Of a stretch of DNA of 28,241 nucleotides, positions 3,307-23,661 are shown in pieces (position 1 is the stretch's first letter; every line of letters begins with the position of its first letter). The translations under genes and the position numbers were made by a program. The DNA comes from a virus (Duplodnaviria; Heunggongvirae; Uroviricota; Caudoviricetes): the IMG/VR virus record IMGVR_UViG_2541047953_000002; one strand, 5' to 3'. The notes under the pieces were generated by a model that was not told where the DNA came from, ran no database searches, and saw nothing but the letters and a program-made list of their open reading frames with translations.

Positions 3307-3464
3307 CTACGGCAGTGCTGGCCATTCAATATCCTGTGCAGTTGACGTATCAACACGGTTCAGCAATACCCGATACTTTTTCCATGCTTCCAGCAACGAG
3401 ATTTCTTCCTCCGTTGCAATTTCCAGATCTGCAGCATCCTGAAGCGGCGCAATATGCTCACTGG
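3307..3464 (-). pseudogene. C-terminal remnant (~52 codons, no start) of a tail fibre assembly protein Tfa
   Basis: Manual translation gives ...[29 protein letters not shown], matching the Tfa C-terminus as recalled; the frame differs from the adjacent terminase gene and has no start codon. Confidence 0.6.
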
Positions 3465-4889
3465 CTACACAATGGTCGGGTCAATCCCGCCAGTATCCCA
3501 GCAGATACGGGATATCGACATTTCTGCACCATTCCGGCGGGTATAGGTTTTATTGATGGCCTCATCCACACGCAGCAGCGTCTGTTCATCGTCGTGGCGG
3601 CCCATAATAATCTGCCGATCAATCAGCCAGCTTTCCTCACCCGGCCCCCATCCCCATACGCGCATTTCGTAGCGGTCCAGTTGGGAGTCGATACCGGCGG
3701 TCAGGTAAGCCACACGGTCAGGAACGGGCGCTGAATAATGCTCTTTCCGCTCTGCCATCACTTCAGCATCCGGACGTTCACCGATTTTCGCTTCCCACGT
3801 CTCACCGAGCGTGGTGTTCACGAAGGTTTTACGTTTTCCCGTATCCCCTTTCGTCTTCATCCAGTCTTTGACAATCTGCACCCAGGTGGTGAACGGACTG
3901 TACGCCGTCCAGATGTGAAAGGTCACACTGTCAGGCGGTTCAATCTCTTCACCGGATGACGAAAACCAGAGAATGCCATCACGGGTCCAGATCCCGGTCT
4001 TTTCGCAGATATAACGGGCATCAGTAAAGTCCAGCTCCTGCTGACGGATGACGCAGGCGTTATGCTCACAGAGATAAAACACGCTGGAGGGGTCATCCGG
4101 CATCCATTTGAGGCCAAACGGCGTCTCTTTGTCGCCAAATTTAAGGTACTGCTCCTCCCCGCAGTGCGGGCAGGCAACATGAAAACGCATAAAATGCGGG
4201 GATTCACTGGCTGCACGCTCAATCTGGCAGGTGCCTCTCACTTTGGGCGTGGAGCCACGGATGGACTTTGGCCAGACCGAGCCTTCAATACGTTTGTCGC
4301 CAAGGAACGTCGGAGAGCCTTCCTGTTCAATATCCTCATCAAAGGCAGCAAGTTCATCATAACCCGCCACATCCACCGACTTTTCACGGTAGTTTTTTGC
4401 CGCTTTACCGCCCAGGCACCAGAAGCCACGACCATTGGTGAAACGCTTCATAGTGAGCGTGTTATCCCGGTGCTTTTTGCCATACCACGGAGCCAGCGCC
4501 AGCAGCGACGGAATATCGCGGATGGTCGGCTCAACGTGGGTTTTCATAAAGTTCTCGGCATCACCATCCGTCGGCAACCAGATAAGTGTGTTGCGCTGCT
4601 TATGCTCTATAAAGTAGGCATAAACACCCAGCAGCATTTTGGAATAACCGACACGGGCAGACTTCACCACATTCACCTCACGGATGTAGTCGCTGCCCAT
4701 CGCATTCATGATGGCCCGCTGAAAGGGCAGTGTTTCCCAGCGCCCTTCCTGGTATGCGGATTCTTTCGGGAGATAGTAATTAGCATCCGCCCATTCAACG
4801 GCGGTCTGTGGCTCCGGCCTGAACAGTGAGCGAAGCCCGGCGCGGACAAAATGCCGCAGCCTGTTAACCTGACTGTTCGATATATTCAC
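3465..4889 (-). CDS. Terminase large subunit, lambda gpA homologue, C-terminally truncated (474 of ~641 aa) at a deletion junction
   Basis: Protein matches lambda gpA from [14 protein letters not shown] through ...GGIDPTIV as recalled, then stops; lambda continues YERSKK. Confidence 0.9.
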
Positions 4890-7290: not shown

Positions 7291-7497
7291 CTTCATTTTC
7301 ACTTTTTTAAATCCAACGACAGACGGCTGGCATTTAAGTATTGTGAAATATTATCAAATGTAATCATCATTGATTTACAAAAGATACATTTTGCCCCGAA
7401 AGGATTCATGTCAGAAACATCAAAAGATGATGTTCTATACTGGGAACCATGACAACACGGGCATCTAAAGTGAATATGGTTTGTAATATTGTCTACC

Positions 7498-7710
7498 TCA
7501 AAGCGCCACTACATGAACAGCGGCAGGACCTTTAGGTCCGTTCTCAATACCAAATTCAACTTCCTGATTCTCAGTTAATGTTTTGAAATCGTTGCTCTGA
7601 ATTGCTGAGAAATGGACAAACACATCTTTGCTGCCATCTTTCGGCGTGATGAAACCAAAACCTTTTTCAGGGTTAAACCATTTCACTAAACCAGTCATTT
7701 TGTTAGACAT
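7498..7710 (-). CDS. cspI: Cold-shock protein CspA family (70 aa)
   Basis: Protein [38 protein letters not shown]... with RNP1/RNP2 motifs. Confidence 0.95.
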
Positions 7711-8072
7711 AATTATTACCTTTTGAAGAAATTAGCCCTTGGGCAGAATGGTCCGAAAAAAAATATCAGAGAGAAAAACCAACAAGGAAATCTCAAGAGG
7801 TACAAATAATAAAATTATAACAATGACTGCTTCAGATAAATTTGTAACAAACCAGAACACCATTAACGCATGATTAACCACCCATAGCAAGGATTACTTT
7901 TGTAAAGAAAAACACAGCAATGAAAGAATAGCTTTATTTATTAATAAAACGTGTCATTCTGATTAAGACCTTTTATCTTACCCTTAAGATTTCAGGAATT
8001 TTGGCTCATGGAAGAGTCCTTTTTATTTAAATTTTACATTCCGCGATGTAAATGTTCCGATTTAATATTACC

Positions 8073-9096
<1,024 letters not shown>

Positions 9097-9100
<4 letters not shown>

Positions 9101-10100: not shown

Positions 10101-10381
10101 GAGATTGTGGTGCTTTTTGTGGGAGTCATCCACTTACGCACTTTGTTTTGCCATGCCAGCAGTTAGCTTCTGCTGTAAAACTATTCATGCAGCAAACCTG
10201 CACTTCACCACAATGGTTAGCATACTTTTCCTGATTAAGATTTTGCCAAATATGCTAGCCATTGTTTCATGTATTGGACCTCCTTACTTTTTATTAAAGA
10301 GATCCAATATTCACTACTCTGTCCGTATCTCTACTCAGGCATCAGCCTTCTTCGTTATCGTATACAGACGAGCGATGAATT

Positions 10382-10597
10382 TTAATCAGTAATGATGACA
10401 TTTGCTGCTGCAGGACCTTTAGCACCACTCTCTATAGAGAAGGTAACCTTTTGACCTTCAAATAAGGTTCGATAATTATCATTCTGAATCGCAGAAAAAT
10501 GCACAAACACATCTTTACTACCATCAACAGGAGAAATAAAGCCGAAACCTTTATCAGCGTTAAACCATTTTACTAAACCAGTCATTTTATTTGACAT
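10382..10597 (-). CDS. cspB: Cold-shock protein CspA family (71 aa)
   Basis: Protein [38 protein letters not shown]... Confidence 0.95.
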
Positions 10598-10897
10598 TCT
10601 ACATTCCTTAACTTGAGCCTTTCGGCATAAATGGTTTGCATAACAGAAACGACTTCGTACTTAATTGGAGAGACTCAAAGAAGGAATAAGTGAATAACAC
10701 CTGAAATGAGAACTGCTTTAGTAAACTACTTCGTATATCGTCTGTTCTTCAAACCGACGCAATCATTAACGCATAGTTGAACATATGAAGCAATGTTTAT
10801 TTTAGACATCCAGCCATCTTCAACCCCATCAAAAAACTATAGCTTTCTTCAGGAACGTGTGTATAGTGCGCCAAGTTATCAGTATTAAGGAATTTTT

Positions 10898-11531: not shown

Positions 11532-12284
11532 TTATCTCGTCACCTTCCTCAATTGCGCTTCCGCGTATGCTTCTTCCTGCCAGCACTTTGTTACCAGTTT
11601 ACCAATGACGTCCGCATACCCCTTATACCACTGATAATCGGTCAGGTCTGGTACCAGCTTCTGGACATGACGTCGTGCCAGCGTGGTCGGTAAACGACTA
11701 AACCGGTTTCCATTACAACGCCCACAAATCTTATATACCGGTACGCCATGAAACCGGGTTCTTTTTTCATCCAGAACAATCCCTTTACCCTTACACCCTC
11801 TGCACGCTGTGCTGGCTTCGCCCTTACCATGGCAATGCTGACATAGTTCCTTCACCCATTCTTCCTTGATTACAGATTCCCCGCGTCTGTAGTGTTTCAC
11901 CACTTCGCGCAATACATTATAAAATCCCGTACCTGAACAATGCTCACAGCGAGCCTTACTTGCCGCAGACCTGGAGTAATCAGCAAAGGCAAAACTCACG
12001 AGGTAAGGAATAATCTGTAACCGGATTTCTTCACTCAATTTGTTCAATGTCGGGTTATCCAGTGCCATCGCGTAATTTAGCAGGCCTTCAATCGCAAACT
12101 GAGGGTCCTGAACACCAACTTTTGCCAGAAATAAGGCCAACCCAAGTGGTGCTTTCGACTGCACCATCCCCTGCGCTGCCATTACATCCGTAATTGTTAA
12201 ACAACCGGTGCCTGTCGCTGGAGCGTCATCGCTCAATTTTGGAGATTTTGGGGAGTAATATTTTGGTAAGGCTTCAAGGTTCAT
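11532..12284 (-). CDS. quuQ: Late-gene antiterminator Q homologue (250 aa)
   Basis: ORF track 11532..12314; ATG at 12284 has GGAG at ~7 nt; Cys-rich zinc-binding region. Confidence 0.9.
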   Translation of the reverse strand: MNLEALPKYYSPKSPKLSDDAPATGTGCLTITDVMAAQGMVQSKAPLGLALFLAKVGVQDPQFAIEGLLNYAMALDNPTLNKLSEEIRLQIIPYLVSFAFADYSRSAASKARCEHCSGTGFYNVLREVVKHYRRGESVIKEEWVKELCQHCHGKGEASTACRGCKGKGIVLDEKRTRFHGVPVYKICGRCNGNRFSRLPTTLARRHVQKLVPDLTDYQWYKGYADVIGKLVTKCWQEEAYAEAQLRKVTR

Positions 12285-12297
12285 GCTCGTTCTCCAC

Positions 12298-13063
12298 TTA
12301 CGCCAGTACGCCAATTGCCAGCGCGCGATCGATAAAACGAAATATCAGCTCCAGTTGGGAGCCATACTTATCTTCAAATGCCACTGTATCCGTATGCAGC
12401 TCGTTGTGATGCTTTCTGCACAAAGGCAACACAAAGAGATCATGTGCTTTTGTTCCCATTCCGCCCTGCCCGTGACCAATCAGATGATGCGGATCGTCGG
12501 CTGGCATACCGCAGCAAGCACACGGCTGTGTCTTAACCCAACGTGTGTATTTCTCCTTAACCCAGCGGCGACGTTTAGGCAGCTTCATGAAAGATTCCGG
12601 AGACTCTGGATCAACGGTGATGCTTACCACCGTCTTTTCCTGTGGTGATTTTTGTTGCTGGTGGGCGTAAGGCAACGGTGCAAGATTTTTTGTGCGTTGT
12701 TTCAATATGCTGGTGGCGGTCTGCTCTCCCGGTACGATGTCGCTTTCGCGGTACACCGAGCAGATTTTTTCCGCTGGTAATCCCAGCAAACGACGCGATA
12801 CAGCCTCAGGTAGTGCATCCACCACCTGATTGCAGACCGCCCACCAGGATAATTCAGCCAAAGATAATTCCCGCTCCTGCGTACCGCTTATTGCGTGACG
12901 GATGACGTCAATCACCCATGCTGTCAGATTTTGTTGAGCAAGCAGCTCCAGTGATTCCGATGTCTGGTCACGCAGTTGGTTGTCGCAGTGCCAGCACAAC
13001 ACCATTGCGCCGGTACCATAACGGTGAATGACTGTTTCAGTGTGATGGTAATCGCCATTAGGC
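12298..13063 (-). pseudogene. ydfU: ydfU (DUF968, HNH-motif protein) C-terminal 255 codons, separated from its 5' part by an IS66-family insertion
   Basis: HNH-like motif CACCGMPADDPHHL...HH; frame and length reconstruct a 349-aa gene once the IS and one duplication copy are removed. Confidence 0.8.
13056..13063. repeat. 8-bp target-site duplication CATTAGGC (left copy) of the IS66-family element
   Basis: Identical 8-mer at 15596-15603 directly abutting the other IS end. Confidence 0.8.
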
Positions 13064-13148: not shown

Positions 13149-13574
13149 ATGGAATTACAGGACTGGCGAAAAGAACCTCGTAAAAACTATTCGAATGAAT
13201 TCAAACTTCGTATGGTGGAACTGGCATCACAACCTGGAGCTTGTGTTGCACAGATTGCACGTGAAAATGGCGTCAATGATAATGTTATTTTCAAATGGCT
13301 CAGGCTCTGGCAGAACGAAGGGCGTGTTTCGCGGCGTCTTCCGGTAACGACCTCTTCTGACACTGGCGTTGAATTATTACCTGTAGAAATAACGCCGGAT
13401 GAGCAGAAAGAACCTGTGGCGGCCATTGCGCCGTCTTTATCCACTTCCACTCAGACCAGAGTCAGTGCCAGTTCCTGCAAGGTGGAATTCCGTCACGGTA
13501 ACATGACGCTGGAAAATCCATCGCCAGAGCTGCTCACAGTGTTGATCCGTGAACTGACCGGGAGGGGAAGATGA
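13149..13574 (+). CDS. IS66-family accessory protein TnpA (HTH, 141 aa)
   Basis: ORF track; first gene of the IS66 triad; 4-nt overlap with tnpB. Confidence 0.85.
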   Translation: MELQDWRKEPRKNYSNEFKLRMVELASQPGACVAQIARENGVNDNVIFKWLRLWQNEGRVSRRLPVTTSSDTGVELLPVEITPDEQKEPVAAIAPSLSTSTQTRVSASSCKVEFRHGNMTLENPSPELLTVLIRELTGRGR

Positions 13575-13921
13575 TCTCACTCCCATCAGGTACCCGTATC
13601 TGGCTCGTTGCCGGCGTTACCGATATGCGTAAATCCTTCAACGGACTGGGAGAACAGGTACAACATGTGCTGAATGATAATCCCTTCTCCGGTCACCTGT
13701 TTATCTTCCGTGGCCGACGGGGTGACACCGTCAAAATTCTTTGGGCTGATGCTGATGGTCTGTGCCTGTTCACCAAACGCCTGGAGGAAGGCCAGTTTAT
13801 CTGGCCTGCGGTACGTGACGGCAAGGTATCCATTACCCGCTCGCAACTGGCAATGCTCCTCGATAAGCTGGACTGGCGCCAGCCAAAAACATCCAGCCGT
13901 AACTCACTGACAATGTTGTAA
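13571..13921 (+). CDS. IS66-family TnpB (116 aa)
   Basis: Characteristic N-terminus PSGTRIWLVAGVTDMRKSFNGL. Confidence 0.9.
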   Translation: MISLPSGTRIWLVAGVTDMRKSFNGLGEQVQHVLNDNPFSGHLFIFRGRRGDTVKILWADADGLCLFTKRLEEGQFIWPAVRDGKVSITRSQLAMLLDKLDWRQPKTSSRNSLTML

Positions 13922-13951
13922 AAAACTCCTGACCGCATTATAAAAACGGTC

Positions 13952-15565
13952 ATGAGTCAGAAATACCTCATTCGCATCGCAGAGCTGGAAAGGTTGCTCT
14001 CTGAGCAGGCTGAAGCCCTCCGTCAGAAAGACCAGCAACTGAGTCTGGTTGAAGAGACGGAAGCCTTCCTGCGCTCTGCACTGACACGTGCCGAAGAAAA
14101 GATCGAAGAAGATGAACGGGAAATAGAACATCTGCGGGCTCAGATAGAAAAACTGCGCCGGATGCTGTTCGGTACCCGTTCTGAAAAACTGCGTCGTGAA
14201 GTTGAACTGGCTGAGGCTCTGCTGAAACAACGTGAACAGGACAGCGATCGTTACAGTGGGCGGGAAGACGATCCTCAGGTTCCCCGCCAGTTGCGACAGT
14301 CGCGCCATCGTCGTCCGTTACCGGCACACCTTCCCCGTGAAATACACCGCCTGGAGCCAGAAGAAAGCTGTTGCCCGGAGTGTGGCGGTGAGCTGGATTA
14401 TCTGGGGGAAGTCAGCGCTGAACAGCTGGAACTGGTGAGCAGTGCCCTGAAAGTGATCCGCACAGAACGGGTAAAAAAAGCCTGTACAAAATGTGACTGT
14501 ATTGTTGAAGCACCGGCGCCGTCCCGCCCGATAGAGCGTGGTATCGCGGGCCCCGGATTACTTGCCCGCGTGTTAACGGGAAAATACTGCGAACATCTGC
14601 CACTGTATCGTCAGAGTGAAATCTTTGCCCGCCAGGGTGTCGAACTGAGCCGGGCCTTACTCTCCAACTGGGTTGACGCGTGCTGCCAGTTAATGACACC
14701 GGTGAATGATGCCCTGTACCGTTATGTAATGAACACCCGCAAGGTTCACACTGATGACACACCGGTAAAGGTACTGGCACCGGGTCAGAAAAAGGCGAAA
14801 ACAGGGCGTATCTGGACGTATGTCCGGGATGATCGCAATGTGGGTTCGTCATCTCCTCCAGCGGTCTGGTTCGCGTACTCGCCGAACCGGCAGGGGAAAC
14901 ACCCGGAGCAACACCTCCGCCCCTTCCGGGGTATCCTGCAGGCGGATGCGTTCACAGGTTACGACAGGTTGTTCAGTGCAGAACGTGAAGGTGGTGCACT
15001 GACAGAAGTTGCGTGCTGGGCCCATGCCCGGCGAAAAATCCACGATGTATACATCAGCAGCAAAAGTGCGACGGCAGAAGAAGCCCTGAAGCGAATCAGT
15101 GAACTGTACGCCATCGAGGATGAAATACGGGGATTACCGGAGTCAGAGCGTCTTGCCGTCAGGCAGCAGCGAAGCAAAGTGTTACTGACGTCGCTGCATG
15201 AATGGATGGTGGAGAAGAATGGTACGCTGTCGAAAAAATCCAGACTGGGCGAAGCGTTCAGCTATGTACTGAATCAGTGGGATGCCCTCTGTTATTACAG
15301 TGATGACGGTCTGGCGGAGGCGGATAATAATGCTGCGGAAAGAGCGCTTCGTGCAGTCTGTCTCGGAAAGAAAAACTTTATGTTCTTTGGCAGCGATCAC
15401 GGCGGCGAGCGTGGAGCACTGTTGTACGGGCTGATCGGCACCTGCCGTCTGAACGGTATCGATCCGGAAGCGTATCTGCGCCATATCCTGAGCGTACTGC
15501 CGGAATGGCCTTCCAACCGAGTTGACGAACTCCTGCCATGGAACGTAGTACTCACCAATAAATAA
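13952..15565 (+). CDS. IS66-family transposase TnpC (537 aa)
   Basis: N-terminal coiled coil, CxxC...CxxC zinc finger, and conserved CWAHARRK / NNAAERALR motifs. Confidence 0.9.
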   Translation: MSQKYLIRIAELERLLSEQAEALRQKDQQLSLVEETEAFLRSALTRAEEKIEEDEREIEHLRAQIEKLRRMLFGTRSEKLRREVELAEALLKQREQDSDRYSGREDDPQVPRQLRQSRHRRPLPAHLPREIHRLEPEESCCPECGGELDYLGEVSAEQLELVSSALKVIRTERVKKACTKCDCIVEAPAPSRPIERGIAGPGLLARVLTGKYCEHLPLYRQSEIFARQGVELSRALLSNWVDACCQLMTPVNDALYRYVMNTRKVHTDDTPVKVLAPGQKKAKTGRIWTYVRDDRNVGSSSPPAVWFAYSPNRQGKHPEQHLRPFRGILQADAFTGYDRLFSAEREGGALTEVACWAHARRKIHDVYISSKSATAEEALKRISELYAIEDEIRGLPESERLAVRQQRSKVLLTSLHEWMVEKNGTLSKKSRLGEAFSYVLNQWDALCYYSDDGLAEADNNAAERALRAVCLGKKNFMFFGSDHGGERGALLYGLIGTCRLNGIDPEAYLRHILSVLPEWPSNRVDELLPWNVVLTNK

Positions 15566-16701: not shown

Positions 16702-16857
16702 TTACTCCTCAGGTTCGTAAGCTGTGAAGACAGCGACCTCCGTCTGGCCGGTTCGGATTCGTACCTCGCAGAGGTCTTTCCTCGTTACCAGTGCCGTCAC
16801 TATGACGGTTAAACAGATGACGATCAGGGCGATTAACATCGCCTTTTGCTGCTTCAT
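16702..16857 (-). CDS. hokD: Hok-family membrane toxin (51 aa; HokD/RelF)
   Basis: Manual translation MKQQKAMLIALIVICLTVIVTALVTRKDLCEVRIRTGQTEVAVFTAYEPEE; below ORF-track cutoff. Confidence 0.85.
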   Translation of the reverse strand: MKQQKAMLIALIVICLTVIVTALVTRKDLCEVRIRTGQTEVAVFTAYEPEE

Positions 16858-16928
16858 AGCCTGCTTCTCCTGTCAACGCAAAGCAGAAGTGTCACCTTCG
16901 GTGCGAAACAGAGATGTCATGCTTTGGT

Positions 16929-17216
16929 TCAGAGAATGCGTTTGACCGCCTCGCTATATACTTCCGAGCGTTCTCTTTTCCCAACAGAAATCACGAAAAC
17001 GACAACTTTCTCGTCTATAACCTGGTATACAAGGCGATAGCCTGAAGACCGGAGCTTAATCTTGTAACAATCAGGCATACCACGGAGCTTGTTTGCTTCA
17101 ATCCGGGGTGACTCAAGTACTTCAACCAGCTTCTTTTTCAACTGTTCACGTACCGTCGAGCCCAGCTTTCGCCATTCCTTTAGTGCCCGCTCGTCAAAAT
17201 CCAGAAAATACGCCAT
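16929..17216 (-). CDS. relE: RelE mRNA-interferase toxin (95 aa)
   Basis: ORF track; classic RelE sequence; overlaps the relB stop. Confidence 0.95.
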   Translation of the reverse strand: MAYFLDFDERALKEWRKLGSTVREQLKKKLVEVLESPRIEANKLRGMPDCYKIKLRSSGYRLVYQVIDEKVVVFVISVGKRERSEVYSEAVKRIL

Positions 17217-17455
17217 CAGAGTTCATCCAGCGTCACACGTACTGGCTTAGGATTACGAAGCCGTTCTTTCACTATCTCCACAAGTTCAGCATCTTCATCA
17301 CTCAGGAGTGTCTGTTTGAACGGCAAGCGTTCATTGTCAGCGATATACTCGAGCATGAGACGAAGCGCTTCAGAAGGAGTTACACCCATTTTTTCAAGCG
17401 CGGCGTAAGAACGCGCTTTAAGTTCATCGTCAATACGCAGGTTAATGCTACCCAT
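17216..17455 (-). CDS. relB: RelB antitoxin (79 aa)
   Basis: ORF track; ribbon-helix-helix N-terminus. Confidence 0.95.
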   Translation of the reverse strand: MGSINLRIDDELKARSYAALEKMGVTPSEALRLMLEYIADNERLPFKQTLLSDEDAELVEIVKERLRNPKPVRVTLDEL

Positions 17456-17525
17456 GTCTTACACCTCTTGTAATTACAAATGTCATTACAAGTATCGCAC
17501 TACAACATGCTTAGGGCAAGTCACG
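17456..17525 (-). promoter_or_regulatory. relBE promoter and relO-type operator (12-bp perfect palindrome TTGTAATTACAA at 17468-17479 plus adjacent TGTCATTACAAG repeat)
   Basis: Palindromic hexad repeats seen directly upstream of the relB start; candidate -35 TTGCCC and -10 GATACT. Confidence 0.6.
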
Positions 17526-17785
17526 AAGGAAGTCAGAAAGTAGTCGTAAGAACGGTGATCACTGTCCGCTTTGTGCCAGGAGCAGCCATTGCTAAGTCCA
17601 TCCTGTATTGTGCAGGTCAGCTCGTTTTTAAAGAGTCCGGCCATCATCTTACTGGTACAGACACCATATACTTTGTGACGGTCAGGCTACATATGCACAA
17701 CTCAACTTATTCATCTATTTTTTGCTTTAGCATGTCAGTGTTGCTTTCTCGTCGGCGGGTGAGCGGTGACCTGACCTGTCGATAA
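17480..17785 (+). CDS. ydfV: Hypothetical protein (101 aa); start codon lies inside the relO operator
   Basis: ORF track; length and position match K-12 ydfV from memory; no clear Shine-Dalgarno; may not be expressed. Confidence 0.4.
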   Translation: MSLQVSHYNMLRASHEGSQKVVVRTVITVRFVPGAAIAKSILYCAGQLVFKESGHHLTGTDTIYFVTVRLHMHNSTYSSIFCFSMSVLLSRRRVSGDLTCR

Positions 17786-17937
17786 AGGAACGTAACACGT
17801 TTTATGCAACACCCGCATGCGGCAGAAAATTATTGCCGAACGTTTACCCCTGTCAACAAGCTTTACTTTCTGAGGCGCGCCAGCCCGCGAGGAAAACAAT
17901 CTGAACATCAAACAATTAATGACACAAGAAATACGAT

Positions 17938-17964
17938 TAAAGATTTTTTTGTGCATGCCGATAG
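17938..17964 (+). promoter_or_regulatory. Sigma-28 (FliA) promoter: TAAA-N15-GCCGATAG
   Basis: Near-consensus match to TAAA-N15-GCCGATAA about 25 nt upstream of the flxA start. Confidence 0.65.
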
Positions 17965-17987
17965 TGCTTTTTTAAAAGGAGAAATCT

Positions 17988-18320
17988 ATGTCTGTCACAA
18001 TTCAGGGAAATACCTCAACCGTTATTTCAAACAACTCCGCCCCGGAAGGAACATCAGAAATAGCCAAAATCACAAGACAAATTCAGGTGCTGACTGAAAA
18101 GCTTGGGAAAATCTCATCGGAAGAGGGGATGACGACACAGCAGAAAAAAGAAATGGCTGCATTGGTACAGAAGCAAATTGAAAGCCTCTGGGCTCAACTG
18201 GAGCAGTTGTTAAGGCAGCAGGCAGAGAAAAAGAATGAAGACGCGACAGTTCAGCCTGATAAAAAAGAAGAGAAAAAAGACGATACAAATACCGCTGGCA
18301 CCATTGATATTTACGTCTAA
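17988..18320 (+). CDS. flxA: FliA-regulated protein FlxA (110 aa)
   Basis: ORF track; AGGAG Shine-Dalgarno; sigma-28 promoter upstream. Confidence 0.9.
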   Translation: MSVTIQGNTSTVISNNSAPEGTSEIAKITRQIQVLTEKLGKISSEEGMTTQQKKEMAALVQKQIESLWAQLEQLLRQQAEKKNEDATVQPDKKEEKKDDTNTAGTIDIYV

Positions 18321-18335
18321 GTGACAGCCGTATTG

Positions 18336-18358
18336 TGGCCCTCATCGGGCCACTTTTC
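18336..18358 (+). terminator. Candidate flxA terminator (stem gtggccc/gggccac then TTTT)
   Basis: Seen directly 16 nt after the flxA stop. Confidence 0.45.
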
Positions 18359-18756
18359 GCCATCAGCCTTTTCTTTAAAGACATATTATCTTTGTATCAT
18401 TTCTGATAGTTAACATTACAAGATATAAGTAATGGACGCACTCCCAATTAGTCTATTTAAATCGCCACGAGTTTAACTGACAACCCATGATCAATTATGA
18501 ATTGCAACTATTTCTGTAGTCACTTTTGTGGGGACAGTCCACAAAACTGCCAACTTCCGCTTCTTGCTCTTAGCGGACATTAGCATAGGCTATTTACCAT
18601 AACGCCTCATTACGCGCACCGCCCAGACTGACTCAGCGCGTTTCTGGCATATCCCCGGTAAAACAAGTAACAAACCACCCGAAAATGAACACCAGAAACG
18701 CGACTTAAGAATCTACCCTATGAATGGATATGCACTCAACCGAATCGATCTTGGTT

Positions 18757-20070
18757 TCAATCTTTTTTATCGGGATCAGGCTTCTTTTTAGGTAACTTCG
18801 GGGGCTTAACTTGCTGATGACTTTGCGTTCGGCGCGTAAGCCAGGGATGGTCAGCTTTAGGTTTAACATAGTATTTTGAGCGTAAATCAATACGGGCATT
18901 ATCCACTCGTTCATGGACACTCTTTTCATCATCCAGTGGTATAGGCTCCGGGCCATCAACATACTTTTCCCAGCCCAGCGCTTTCCCGTCATACAGAACG
19001 TTAATTTCACCGTCAAAGTTCTCGCATACAGTAACAACCGAATGCCTAAGTCGATATCCCCGGCCCTCACTGCGTACCTGAAACGCACTGCTTTTGTACT
19101 GGAAAGTGAGATTTTTAGACAGAACGCGCTTCGCCTGTAGGCTGAAGATATAACCCAGTTCCTCTTCAGAATGGTGCACATCAAGATGAGCATTATCAGT
19201 AGTACGAGGCGACGTAGCGAACCGGTTGTTATAGGCTTCAATAAAGGTCGGCAACCATGCATTTGCTGTTTCAATATCACTGATATTCTGAAGCCGCATT
19301 TCTTTGACCAGCCTGTCCTGTAGTGTCTGATTGGCGCGCTCTACCCGCCCTTTTGCCTGCGGGCTGTTGGCATGGATTGGCTCGATGCCCAGTGTCTTTA
19401 TCGCACGAGTGAACTGGGTCAGCTCACCTTCCCGCTCTGGGTTATTTACCCTGAATATACTGTGTCTATCAGAGTAGAGAGCGAGCGGTACGCCATGATC
19501 ATTAAGGTAACCCCGGAGGGTTTCCATGTAAGCCCGGGTTGTTTCAGCAGGCACAAAACGCAACGCCATCAACGCACTGGTGGCATCATCAATGAAAACG
19601 ATCAGTGTACATCTGGGGCCTCGATTTTCAAACCAGTCATGAGGTGAGCCATCAATCTGGATCAGTTCACCGTAAGATGGTCGTCGCATGCGGCGTTGAT
19701 ATATACGGGCAATTTTACGACGGCGTTCACGCCATAACCCCTCTTCTATCATCCACTTTCTGAGAGTTTCAACGGATAAAGATAAACCGTGTATCTCGCG
19801 CAATTTTTCGCACGCAAACGTAGGTCCAAAATCAGCGTAACGGCCTTTGAGGAGTGAAATTACTGTTGCTCTGAATTCAGTAGAAAAGGAATTATTAGGA
19901 CGCTTTCCACGTCGGTGGGAAACCAGACCAGAAGGCCCTTCATTTCTATACCGTTGCACCAGACGTTTAACCTGCCGAATAGAAATGCCAATGCGTGCCG
20001 CAGCTTGTTCCTGAATAATCTGAAGTCGGTGGAGTTCCTTATGACTCATCGTAACAGTCTCTTTGATCAT
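18757..20070 (-). CDS. DDE-type transposase/integrase (rve-like catalytic core, 437 aa); family and element ends unresolved
   Basis: N-terminal HTH, candidate catalytic D-D-E (DGSPHDWF ... DRHSIF ... RVERAN) and a Lys/Pro-rich tail; a 7-bp hairpin overlaps the ribosome-binding site. Confidence 0.8.
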   Translation of the reverse strand: MIKETVTMSHKELHRLQIIQEQAAARIGISIRQVKRLVQRYRNEGPSGLVSHRRGKRPNNSFSTEFRATVISLLKGRYADFGPTFACEKLREIHGLSLSVETLRKWMIEEGLWRERRRKIARIYQRRMRRPSYGELIQIDGSPHDWFENRGPRCTLIVFIDDATSALMALRFVPAETTRAYMETLRGYLNDHGVPLALYSDRHSIFRVNNPEREGELTQFTRAIKTLGIEPIHANSPQAKGRVERANQTLQDRLVKEMRLQNISDIETANAWLPTFIEAYNNRFATSPRTTDNAHLDVHHSEEELGYIFSLQAKRVLSKNLTFQYKSSAFQVRSEGRGYRLRHSVVTVCENFDGEINVLYDGKALGWEKYVDGPEPIPLDDEKSVHERVDNARIDLRSKYYVKPKADHPWLTRRTQSHQQVKPPKLPKKKPDPDKKD

Positions 20071-20404
20071 GAAAAATCCCCCAGAGAATTGTCTGGGGAC
20101 ATTTTAGAATGGTTCAAAGGGGACATTACAGCTTGGTGTTAACAATAGCCTGCTTCTCCGTGCCTTTCGGCACGTAAGAGGCTAACCTACATGTGTCTAG
20201 CATGAAATTGGCCTCAGATTAATGTTAAGCGTCTTGCAGGACGCGTAATGTTAACTGGGGCTTTTCTCTATCTGCCGTTGGTGTCCATGCCCGAGGCAGA
20301 TAGCCTCAAGCACCCGCAGTCATTCTACTTAACTAAGATTTCCCCGCAAACCGTTTTTGTCCAGCACAGTAAATATCCAACTAAACCAATGGAGTTCGCT
20401 GTAT

Positions 20405-20584
20405 TTACCGCCAGTATTCAATGCACATGACCGCCATGAACACCCCTAAAAAAAGGGCATTTATATATCCAAATATTAATATCAAAACATCAACTTTTTC
20501 CATATACCTTGCTGTGAAGATGATGGGCATACATGATGCGAACAACCAGAACGCAACAAACAAAAACTGCAATGCGTTTTTCAT
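20405..20584 (-). CDS. Hypothetical small membrane protein (59 aa, two predicted TM helices)
   Basis: ATG preceded by AGGAGG at 4 nt; sequence MKNALQFLFVAFWLFASCMPIIFTARYMEKVDVLILIFGYINALFLGVFMAVMCIEYWR; ORF track gives a GTG-extended 72-aa form. Confidence 0.45.
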   Translation of the reverse strand: MKNALQFLFVAFWLFASCMPIIFTARYMEKVDVLILIFGYINALFLGVFMAVMCIEYWR

Positions 20585-20637
20585 TATTCCTCCTACAATC
20601 AATGTGCAATTACATTTAAACACACCTCAATTTGGCC

Positions 20638-20646
20638 GGACATATA
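20638..20646. repeat. 9-bp target-site duplication GGACATATA (left copy) of IS1
   Basis: Identical 9-mer at 21415-21423. Confidence 0.85.
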
Positions 20647-20701
20647 GGTAATGGTGCCAACTTACTGATTTAGTGTATGATGGTGTTTTTGAGGTGCTCC
20701 C

Positions 20702-20977
20702 GTGGCTTCCATCTCCATCAGTTGTCCCTCCTGCTCAGCTACTGAAGGCGTGGTGCGTAACGGTAAAAGTACTGCCGGACATCAGCGCTATCTCTGCTCT
20801 CACTGCCGTAAAACATGGCAGCTACAGTTCACTTACACCGCCTCTCAGCCCGGTACACACCAGAAAATTATTGATATGGCCATGAATGGCGTCGGATGTC
20901 GCGCCAGTGCACGCATTATGGGCGTTGGCCTCAACACGATTTTACGACACTTAAAAAACTCAGGCCGCAGTCGGTAA
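20702..20977 (+). CDS. insA: IS1 InsA (91 aa)
   Basis: ORF track; matches IS1 InsA as recalled. Confidence 0.95.
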
Positions 20978-21399
20978 ACTCACGCATACAACCGGGCAGT
21001 GACGTCATTGTTTGCGCGGAAATGGACGAACAGTGGGGTTACGTCGGCGCTAAATCACGCCAGCGCTGGTTGTTTTACGCGTATGACAGGATACGGAGGA
21101 CGGTTGTGGCGCATGTATTCGGTGAACGCACGTTGGCCACGCTGGAGCGTCTTCTGAGCCTGCTGTCGGCCTTTGAGGTCGTGGTATGGATGACGGATGG
21201 CTGGCCGCTGTATGAATCACGCCTGAAGGGAGAACTGCACGTTATCAGCAAGCGATATACGCAGCGCATTGAGCGGCATAACCTGAATCTGAGGCAGCAT
21301 CTGGCAAGGCTGGGCAGGAAGTCACTGTCGTTCTCAAAATCGGTGGAGCTGCATGACAAAGTCATCGGGCATTATCTGAACATAAAACACTATCAGTAA
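20896..21399 (+). CDS. insB: IS1 InsB reading frame (expressed as InsAB' fusion by -1 frameshift)
   Basis: ORF track; matches IS1 InsB as recalled. Confidence 0.9.
20953..20959 (+). promoter_or_regulatory. IS1 programmed -1 frameshift slippery motif AAAAAAC
   Basis: A6C run at the insA/insB overlap (established IS1 mechanism). Confidence 0.7.
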
Positions 21400-21414
21400 G
21401 TTGGAGTCATTACC

Positions 21415-21423
21415 GGACATATA
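21415..21423. repeat. 9-bp target-site duplication GGACATATA (right copy) of IS1
   Basis: Matches 20638-20646. Confidence 0.85.
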
Positions 21424-21615
21424 AATATCTAAACCAGAAAAAATCACTTACATAGCGTTACAAACTCTTTAGTCTAAAGGTTCATCGTAAAACATTCCCC
21501 ATACTTATCAGTCCGTTCCGCGCCAGGTAGCTCATTGCCTTATCTGGCAACCTGTAATCAGGTTTCCGCTTTTTCAGTTGGCTGGTCGTTTAACCGACAT
21601 AGTTAATCCATTAAT

Positions 21616-23554: not shown

Positions 23555-23661
23555 GTCATTGGCCCAGGCAGTCCAGTTATCCGGCGTTAATTGTTAACTG
23601 GTTAACGTCACCTGGAGGCACCAGGCACTGCATCACAAAATTCATTGTTGAGGACGCGATA

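Follow-up and report, generated by a model that had tools for sequence, protein, structure and literature searches.

Does the short, strongly hydrophobic open reading frame (ORF) that lies next to a hok/sok locus in a decayed prophage encode a real protein, and if so, what could that protein do? The ORF in question, 59 codons plus a stop, occupies positions 20405-20584 on the minus strand of IMG/VR virus record IMGVR_UViG_2541047953_000002, a 28,241-nt stretch of Caudoviricetes DNA that was analysed as a whole and to which we refer as the window. The window is a decayed lambdoid prophage of the Qin type, in which the early-right direction of the phage corresponds to the minus strand. A preliminary description had singled out the ORF for its ribosome-binding site and its hydrophobicity, had likened the product to small toxins, holin-like proteins or superinfection-exclusion proteins, and had proposed that an IS1 element inserted upstream could have removed or replaced its promoter. 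Here we argue that this is a real, selected gene for a 59-amino-acid (aa) membrane protein, carried on an accessory cassette of Qin-type prophages beside hok, and we would put the probability of this reading as a whole at roughly 0.7.

Coding character of the 59-codon ORF

The ORF runs from an ATG at 20584-20582 to a TAA at 20407-20405, and its product is MKNALQFLFVAFWLFASCMPIIFTARYMEKVDVLILIFGYINALFLGVFMAVMCIEYWR, a peptide with a grand average of hydropathy (GRAVY) of 1.27 and two hydrophobic blocks. It is preceded by a perfect AGGAGG Shine-Dalgarno (SD) motif on the same strand (20589-20594), from which the 4-nt spacer AATA leads to the ATG; both the coordinates and the sequence are as first described. 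Five AGGAGG sites occur on the two strands of the window, and the one upstream of the 59-codon ORF is the sole one to open an ORF of at least 50 aa. However, the window contains 89 methionine-start ORFs that reach 59 aa or more, of which chance alone would give about 0.17 such an SD, and the motif by itself is therefore suggestive of a gene and not decisive.

What carries the argument is the comparison with a distant relative. Word-indexed protein searches returned relatives that are all at least 74% identical and all from Escherichia coli or Shigella, and an exhaustive phmmer search of 1.84 billion representatives additionally retrieved a sister-clade protein (P0037, E=1e-8) of exactly 59 aa, with the sequence MRKIL(M/V)YLCISIWIVISCVPIILTSEYLTEASIMALMFGHANALCIGVFISIIYIECWR. 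We refer to the family of the window's protein as clade 1 and to its sister as clade 2. BLASTP aligns residues 1-59 of both at 41% identity and 69% positives with 0 gaps, and the two ORFs differ at 73 of 180 nt (59% nucleotide identity) with no insertion or deletion. These differences fall at the three codon positions as 25/17/31, and Nei-Gojobori counting gives a pN of 0.34 and a pS of 0.71, which corresponds to a dN/dS of about 0.2 with synonymous sites saturated. Each of the remaining five frames contains stops in at least one clade, including the frame of an antisense ORF annotated in phage records. Furthermore, an SD is kept in both clades, as AGGAGG (126 copies) or AGGGGG (59 copies) in clade 1 and as AGGGA, 6 nt ahead of the ATG, in clade 2. 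Because clade 2 has an in-frame stop 18 nt 5' of its ATG, translation has to begin at the 59-aa start, and the 72-aa, GTG-started version given in some GenBank records was rejected. Outside of the ORF little similarity is left: BLAST gives no alignment between the clades for the cassette sequence upstream, and downstream similarity is detectable for only about 22 nt past the stop codon.

In order to judge how readily neutral change would produce such a pair, the same number and spectrum of substitutions as in the clade pair were simulated in 200,000 runs. The frame remained without a stop in 3.5% of the runs (P=0.035), was open with an identity equal to or above that observed in 0.08% (P=8e-4), and was open with a BLOSUM62 score equal to or above that observed in 0 of 200,000 (P<5e-6). 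Taken with the substitution pattern, this suggests that the ORF has very likely evolved as a protein-coding gene. The preliminary description had held that a lack of conservation in related prophages would speak against a gene; our homology search found the ORF to be conserved there, and the purifying selection between clades upholds its view that this is no chance ORF.

An ORF that arose by chance in an AT- and T-rich intergenic spacer, hydrophobic merely through its T-rich codons and preceded by an SD through coincidence, would agree with the absence of a call by PGAP, with the lack of any family match, with the 0.17 such ORFs expected in the window, and with the wholly nonsynonymous polymorphism within clade 1 that is described below. 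Such an origin is nevertheless very improbable, as it would have to produce a homologue at 59% nucleotide identity with an identical 59-codon frame, start and stop, a pN far below pS, closed alternative frames and a simulated probability below 5e-6. A structured RNA or other nucleotide element was also considered as the cause of conservation and was rejected, since the predicted fold is at background (z=-0.7) and the only Rfam match over the locus is the sok of the neighbouring hok.

The gene has passed largely unrecorded. PGAP (RefSeq) has no annotation of the ORF in any genome listed, and GenBank records PV340562, ON470612 and ON470619 of phages instead carry an 83-aa ORF on the opposite strand (3969-4220 of both L001 and L002) that is annotated as 'hornerin' or hypothetical. 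This antisense ORF is very likely a mis-annotation, since clade 2 has stops in that frame. Searches of Pfam, PHROGs, NCBIfam and PADLOC gave no match for the 59-aa, 72-aa or antisense 76-aa products, the sole weak signal being a sub-threshold one between the antisense product and DUF5445 (E=0.31). The 59-aa protein has no Pfam match to Hok/Gef (PF01848) at E<=1, no profile match to described toxin, holin or defence/exclusion families (PADLOC 0, PHROGs 0), and nothing at E<=10 in a profile search of PDB sequences. A Foldseek search of its AlphaFold model against BFVD reached a best E of 0.35 with generic hairpins and was discarded as uninformative. The names found in public sources are only 'hypothetical' or 'uncharacterized membrane protein', literature searches with peptide strings found no paper, and the hokD, Qin and small-protein literature that we searched holds nothing on the 59-aa ORF. 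As such, the family is undescribed in family libraries, solved structures and the searched literature; its carriers are mostly Escherichia and Shigella prophages, and the gene is a previously undescribed one for a structurally ordinary small prophage membrane protein.

The accessory cassette and its distribution

The surroundings of the ORF were delimited by comparison with hok loci of the same type that do not carry it (n=12). In those, an upstream gene of 140 aa ending in ...GTTTTACGATGA is followed by 81 nt and then by the hok promoter, and in clade 1 loci the same two flanks bracket 347 nt instead, made up of leader (120 nt), ORF (180 nt) and tail (47 nt). The GC content of this segment is 35.4%, compared to 44.6% in the left flank, 50.5% in the hok locus and 54.7% in the right flank, and homology to hokW of phage 933W begins at its right edge, at 20361. 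Within the window, IS1 splits the segment in two. Its promoter-distal part (20358-20646, minus strand) holds 62 nt of the leader, the ORF and the 47-nt tail up to the hok promoter region, and its promoter-proximal part (21415-21481, minus strand), 67 nt that include one copy of the IS1 target duplication, is displaced by IS1 and directly follows the TGA (21482) that ends the upstream (pseudo)gene. By this comparison the ORF resides in a discrete, AT-rich accessory cassette, placed between a gene of the early-right operon and the promoter of a hokD-type hok/sok locus.

Scans of the cassette for consensus sigma-70 promoters, intrinsic terminators and significant RNA structure remained at the background of shuffled sequence (z=-0.7 for structure). 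The order of genes in relatives runs dicA / dicC(cro) - cII-like - O-like - DUF977 - methyltransferase - small ORFs - 59-aa ORF - hok/sok - ... - ydfU - rusA - Q. Since the cassette has no evident promoter of its own and is co-oriented with these genes, read-through from the early-right operon is the most economical source of its transcription.

HK97 gp15 and the bor and lom genes of lambda are examples of morons, or accessory cassettes, in lambdoid phages. Like them, the present cassette is a short segment of deviant AT content between elements that are adjacent in related phages, and its product is small, non-structural and predicted to be located in the membrane. Unlike them, it has no detected promoter or terminator, and no similarity was found between its product and that of any described moron. 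The cassette-less loci (L087, L095, L129, L154 and others) carry in its place a hydrophobic ORF of 27 aa (MTWPEAFTTKGIAMAAALVVYSICSWG), whose start and the stop of the 140-aa gene overlap as ATGA and which fills the 83 nt ahead of the hok-promoter anchor, up to the hok promoter. This ORF was considered as a relative of the 59-aa protein and set aside, as BLASTP gives no alignment between the two.

How widely is the gene found? Of 5426 complete E. coli genomes, 1567 (29%) carry clade 1, and the full-length copies among the matches listed are at least 97.9% identical over the ORF and leader. Clade 2 is present in 1044 of the same 5426 genomes (19%), with all copies at least 99% identical, and its setting is a prophage remnant at the Rac attachment region with the order ttcA - integrase fragment - ORF - hokD-like 3' fragment - sitD fragments - uspF - ompN. 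On one IMG/VR contig (L204, 1326-3563) the clade 2 gene lies about 1.4 kb from an integrase fragment and a cdtA-cdtB-cdtC-like operon, the latter assigned by reading translated ORFs. A scan of GTDB species representatives yielded only two Shigella flexneri genomes and one spurious match; in addition, one record of a plasmid collection, from Klebsiella oxytoca, carries clade 1 at 97% identity. Among 50,697 phage records the gene was found in three, all of clade 1, and it is absent from BL21(DE3).

An independent sample that avoids selection on the protein was obtained by gathering 119 IMG/VR loci through an exact hok-promoter anchor. The ORF is present in 103 of these and intact at 59 codons in every one (103/103), and the 12 cassette-less loci have the same hok promoter without it. 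Across the clade 1 module the ORF varies least, at 5 of 180 sites; the 62 nt immediately before it have 8 variable sites, and the 174 nt of the hok leader have 30.

We must however take into account several observations that weigh against the reading of a selected membrane-protein gene on an accessory cassette. The between-clade test of selection consists of a single deep pair of lineages, and the trough of diversity over the ORF possibly reflects a recent shared origin or spread of one cassette lineage instead of constraint. Ten DNA haplotypes of clade 1 differ by nine nonsynonymous and no synonymous polymorphisms, a pattern that fits recent neutral drift in decaying prophages and not strong ongoing purifying selection. 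Judging from these comparisons, selection on the family is evident on the deep time scale, and unproven for present-day copies in decaying prophages. Furthermore, a cassette without a detected promoter or terminator falls short of the full definition of a moron, and a two-helix fold is too simple for informative fold searches. The topology and role proposed below are read from the sequence alone, with transcription, translation and membrane insertion as predictions. Lastly, databases contain variants of the protein that are frameshifted at a T7 run (codons 44-46, 20448-20454 on the minus strand), have recombinant tails or have IS1 ends fused inside the ORF. The frameshifted variants are 55 aa long (P0022, P0024, P0025) and derive mostly from read-assembled data, and no frameshifted copy is present in the 103 anchored loci; they may represent sequencing or assembly errors, or rare slippage.

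Two of the variants, P0038 and P0048, end in GDAANLLI, which we read as a translated IS1 terminus; one of them breaks at clade 1 codon 22 and the other at clade 2 codon 58. Together with the window, these imply that the AT-rich cassette has been struck by IS1 independently at least three times.

If it is expressed, the gene would represent a widespread small membrane protein, present in two clades in 29% and 19% of complete E. coli genomes, that RefSeq has missed. It may be compared to the unannotated small proteins of E. coli that were found by ribosome profiling, for example those of the ynf small genes in the Qin prophage of K-12, which likewise are missed by annotation pipelines, borne by a prophage and of membrane type. 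The Qin prophage of K-12 MG1655, going by its known gene order, presumably does not contain the region of the 59-aa ORF, and the gene is not expected there. Screens for small proteins in K-12 and BL21 therefore could not have seen the gene, since those strains do not have it. This makes it a clean and testable candidate for the study of small proteins encoded by prophages.

Predicted topology and possible roles

AlphaFold2, run on a shallow alignment, models the 59-aa protein as two helices (residues 2-24 and 30-58) at a mean pLDDT of 72, in line with the two hydrophobic blocks and with the two helices initially noted. The residues that are invariant between clades are M1, L5, L8, W13, S17, C18, P20, I21, I22, T24, L36, F38, G39, N42, A43, L44, G47, V48, F49, I55, E56, W58 and R59. 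Small and polar residues among them form faces, S17-C18-x-P20 on helix 1 and G39-xxx-A43-xxx-G47 together with N42 on helix 2, which suggest a specific and tight packing of helices. The N-terminus carries a charge of +1 or +2 from lysine and arginine, the 8-residue loop a charge of 0 or -2, and the C-terminus reads EYWR; the basic N-terminus and the neutral or acidic loop favour a hairpin with both ends in the cytoplasm (N-in/C-in).

We propose that the protein would insert in the cytoplasmic membrane as such an N-in/C-in helical hairpin, and that it would act by self-association or by binding a membrane protein of the host or phage. In intact phages the ORF, co-oriented with cro, cII and O, would be expressed through early-right read-through upon induction or infection, and its product may serve as a non-essential accessory protein that modifies the membrane of the cell while the phage develops or in the lysogenic state. 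An exclusion-type or membrane-modulating role can be put forward only tentatively. T4 Imm, HK97 gp15 and P22 SieA are small inner-membrane proteins by which phages exclude others, and like these the 59-aa protein is small, hydrophobic, phage-encoded, non-essential and fast-evolving, with 41% identity between clades. No homology to any of them was found, however, and neither PHROGs nor PADLOC returned anything.

Of the other explanations, a small toxin that damages membranes deserves consideration first. In this case, the protein would resemble type I toxins or GhoT, in that its translation is normally restrained and it depolarises or permeabilises the inner membrane when made. In size and hydrophobicity (59 aa, GRAVY 1.27) it falls within the range of type I toxins, which are hydrophobic and shorter than about 60 aa, and it is similar in both respects to Hok/Gef (type I) and to GhoT (type V, two helices, 57 aa). 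The perfect SD, the small-xxx-small face on helix 2 and the position next to another membrane toxin, hok, all agree with such a function, as does the location in an AT-rich segment, a kind of segment that is often silenced. Conversely, Hok/Gef proteins have one helix where the 59-aa protein has two, and it has no match to PF01848, to Hok, Ldr, TisB or GhoT, or to any Pfam, NCBIfam or PADLOC model. An antisense RNA or antitoxin was likewise not identified: there is no evident antisense RNA gene, with promoter and terminator consensus scans at background (a weak antisense promoter could escape these), and the SD is not sequestered by mRNA structure (z=-0.7). Given also that thousands of genomes carry the ORF intact and show no recognisable antidote, we regard a toxin as unlikely.

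A further alternative concerns the form of the protein and could be combined with any role. If signal peptidase II cuts before Cys18, the product would be a lipid-anchored protein of 42 aa with one transmembrane (TM) helix, possibly active in superinfection exclusion in the manner of Cor and Llp. Both clades, and both common alleles at position 16 including V16, fit a lipobox rule of the PROSITE PS51257 type with Cys18 (K/R within the first seven residues, a hydrophobic region free of charges, [LIVMFWSTAG]2-[LIVMFYSTAGCQ]-[AGS]-C, Cys at 15-35), for which Lpp served as the positive and HokD as the negative control. S17 and C18 are invariant despite an overall identity of 41%, positions -2 and -3 vary within allowed residues only (A/V/I and F/V), and residues 1-17 are less conserved (5/17) than residues 18-59 (19/42). 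Cor of phi80 and N15 and Llp of T5 are small phage lipoproteins that block receptors. With these the 59-aa protein shares an N-terminal lysine or arginine, a hydrophobic stretch and a lipobox-type motif ([FV][AVI]S-C at residue 18); it differs by an extra, strongly hydrophobic C-terminal helix and has no sequence similarity to them. It should be noted, however, that 6-7% of composition-preserving shuffles of residues 4-24 satisfy the same rule, so that the motif is suggestive at most; a higher background of 30%, calculated from ORFs in the fetched loci, was discarded because it was contaminated by alleles of the gene itself, real lipoproteins and duplicates. In addition, Phe at -3 is unusual, hydrophobicity continues past the Cys in residues 19-24, and the AlphaFold helix runs unbroken from 2 to 24. 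A lipoprotein is thus rather improbable.

The constant position of the ORF upstream of hokD-type loci raises the question whether Hok systems have protein partners, an aspect that the preliminary description did not touch, as it overlooked the hok/sok locus directly downstream. The 59-aa protein could be a membrane modulator of, or an immunity factor for, a HokD-type toxin, or transcription through its ORF could affect hok/sok. Of the 1554-1567 clade 1 genomes with the ORF, 1546 have both the ORF and the hok leader, and in the anciently diverged clade 2 a hokD-like fragment also follows about 60 nt on. Moreover, the hok promoter lies 55 nt past the ORF stop, and a scan detected no terminator in this interval. 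This adjacency can nevertheless be explained by the inheritance of one ancestral arrangement, and the cassette is missing from 12 of 115 hok loci of the same type (about 10%), from hokW of 933W and from hokD of BL21, so that Hok can do without it. The ORF of clade 2 is intact beside a hok reduced by the loss of promoter, leader and about 21 codons, and in most clade 1 genomes hok is split by a relBE block. A functional link to Hok therefore seems doubtful to us. The same degree of doubt attaches to the notion that the ORF forms a conserved two-component membrane module with the HokD-type toxin, or else encodes an independent exclusion lipoprotein; a Hok-partner module, if true, would add a protein component to a toxin family that is thought to be controlled solely by RNA.

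Finally, a holin, pinholin or antiholin is hardly tenable. In its favour are two hydrophobic helices, predicted to be N-in/C-in as in class II holins, in a phage protein of some 60 aa. Against it stand a place outside the lysis cassette, in the early region upstream of Q (11532-12314) and 11 kb from the endolysin (8567-9100), and the lack of a charged C-terminal tail (EYWR only), of a dual-start motif and of any holin match in Pfam or PHROGs; the earlier holin-like label does not fit.

IS1, the upstream deletion and the split hok locus

With an accessory membrane-protein gene, most likely transcribed by early-right read-through, as the preferred reading, the state of its transcription in the window can be considered. 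IS1 occupies 20647-21414 (768 bp) on the plus strand, with insA at 20702-20977 and the insB frame at 20896-21399, and it reads away from the ORF. Its ends are GGTAATGGTGCC.../...GGAGTCATTACC, and it is flanked by a 9-bp target duplication, GGACATATA, at 20638-20646 and 21415-21423. In its length, insA/insB', ends and duplication the element agrees with IS1, and it is 91% identical to another IS1 copy. It splits the cassette 58 nt from the left edge and 62 nt upstream of the ATG, close to the 60 bp first estimated. The flanks of IS1 are contiguous in IS1-free relatives, which together with the intact target duplication means that the element deleted nothing. As such, the earlier suggestion that IS1 could have removed an upstream promoter is not borne out, as this is a simple insertion without loss of DNA, and a replacement promoter is likewise not in evidence: scans found no consensus promoter on either side of IS1 in the cassette, nor one reading outward from the IS1 end. 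A search for the IS1 junction of the window in 5426 E. coli genomes and two Shigella loci gave no match.

A second change may be of more consequence. Compared to a near-identical genome (L003), the window has a deletion of 3.1 kb at 23578-23579, where L003 position 3845 is joined to 738. The deletion removed ydfC, ydfB, ydfA, dicA, dicC, a ydaT-like gene and the 5' part of the O-like gene, and it fuses the remnant of the latter directly to the dicB region, with the pR-equivalent promoter gone. Going by the gene content, this is a larger loss for transcription than IS1. The practical point for the window is that the gene is intact and probably silent, or transcriptionally orphaned, given the loss of the dicA/dicC region, the presence of an oppositely oriented IS1 62 nt from the ATG and scans that revealed no outward promoter. 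Insertions of IS1 or IS5 are able to activate silenced AT-rich loci such as bgl, and by this analogy activation of the 59-aa gene by the insertion of IS1 is conceivable. The window also retains dicB and ydfD, the repressor genes of which are gone.

Downstream of the ORF, the minus strand carries at 20144-20349 the hok promoter (TTGCGG..TAGAAT, about 20349-20322) followed by the hok/sok leader, sok region included; this stretch ends in ...GGAGAAGCAGGCTAT. The promoter hexamers were read by eye and lie below the scan threshold. Rfam places sok (RF01794) full-length at 20144-20315 with 104 bits, and the leader stretch is 92% identical to hokW/sokW of phage 933W. The leader of an intact hok/sok locus continues directly into the coding sequence of a HokD-type protein, as is the case in phage vB_EcoS-640R1 (L002). 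In the window, a block of 3274 nt (16871-20144, minus strand) that contains an ISNCY-type transposase (18757-20070), flxA, ydfV, relB and relE splits the locus at the hok ATG, and the true HokD of the locus is a separate ORF (16702-16857, minus strand; MKQQKAMLIALIVICLTVIVTALVTRKDLCEVRIRTGQTEVAVFTAYEPEE) that the block cuts off from its leader. An exact 15-nt direct repeat, ATAGCCTGCTTCTCC, lies on either side of the block, at 16856-16870 and 20145-20159, and most carrier genomes have the hok locus likewise split by the relBE block. From this arrangement, the block looks like a single insertion at the hok ATG, which would explain why hokD/relF of K-12 is without mok and sok. The integration of relBE into hokD is already on record in PMC6379469, which cites Ramisetty and Santhosh 2016; in the literature searched, we found no discussion of its aspect as an insertion sequence with a long duplication.

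Several minor observations can be added. The ydfW gene of the near-identical genome (L003, 7741-7890) maps to 18757-18906 on the minus strand of the window, where it falls on the last 49 codons of the intact 437-aa ISNCY-type transposase ORF; on this mapping ydfW would seem to be what is left of a transposase and no gene in its own right. An IS66-family element (13149-15565; ORFs of 141, 116 and 537 aa, Pfam DDE_Tnp_IS66) lies between the rem region and ydfU and is absent from L003. In BL21(DE3) (L216, 8367-9143) hokD is found 261 nt downstream of the DUF977 gene with no cassette, relBE block or ISNCY element, and this may be a simpler, possibly intact, form of the locus. Lastly, Rfam matches on the minus strand at 10366-10758, 7471-7856 and 3341-3535 comprise two cspA-type thermoregulator 5' untranslated regions and an IS009 RNA, and the cspA-type regions likely belong to the cold-shock genes of Qin.

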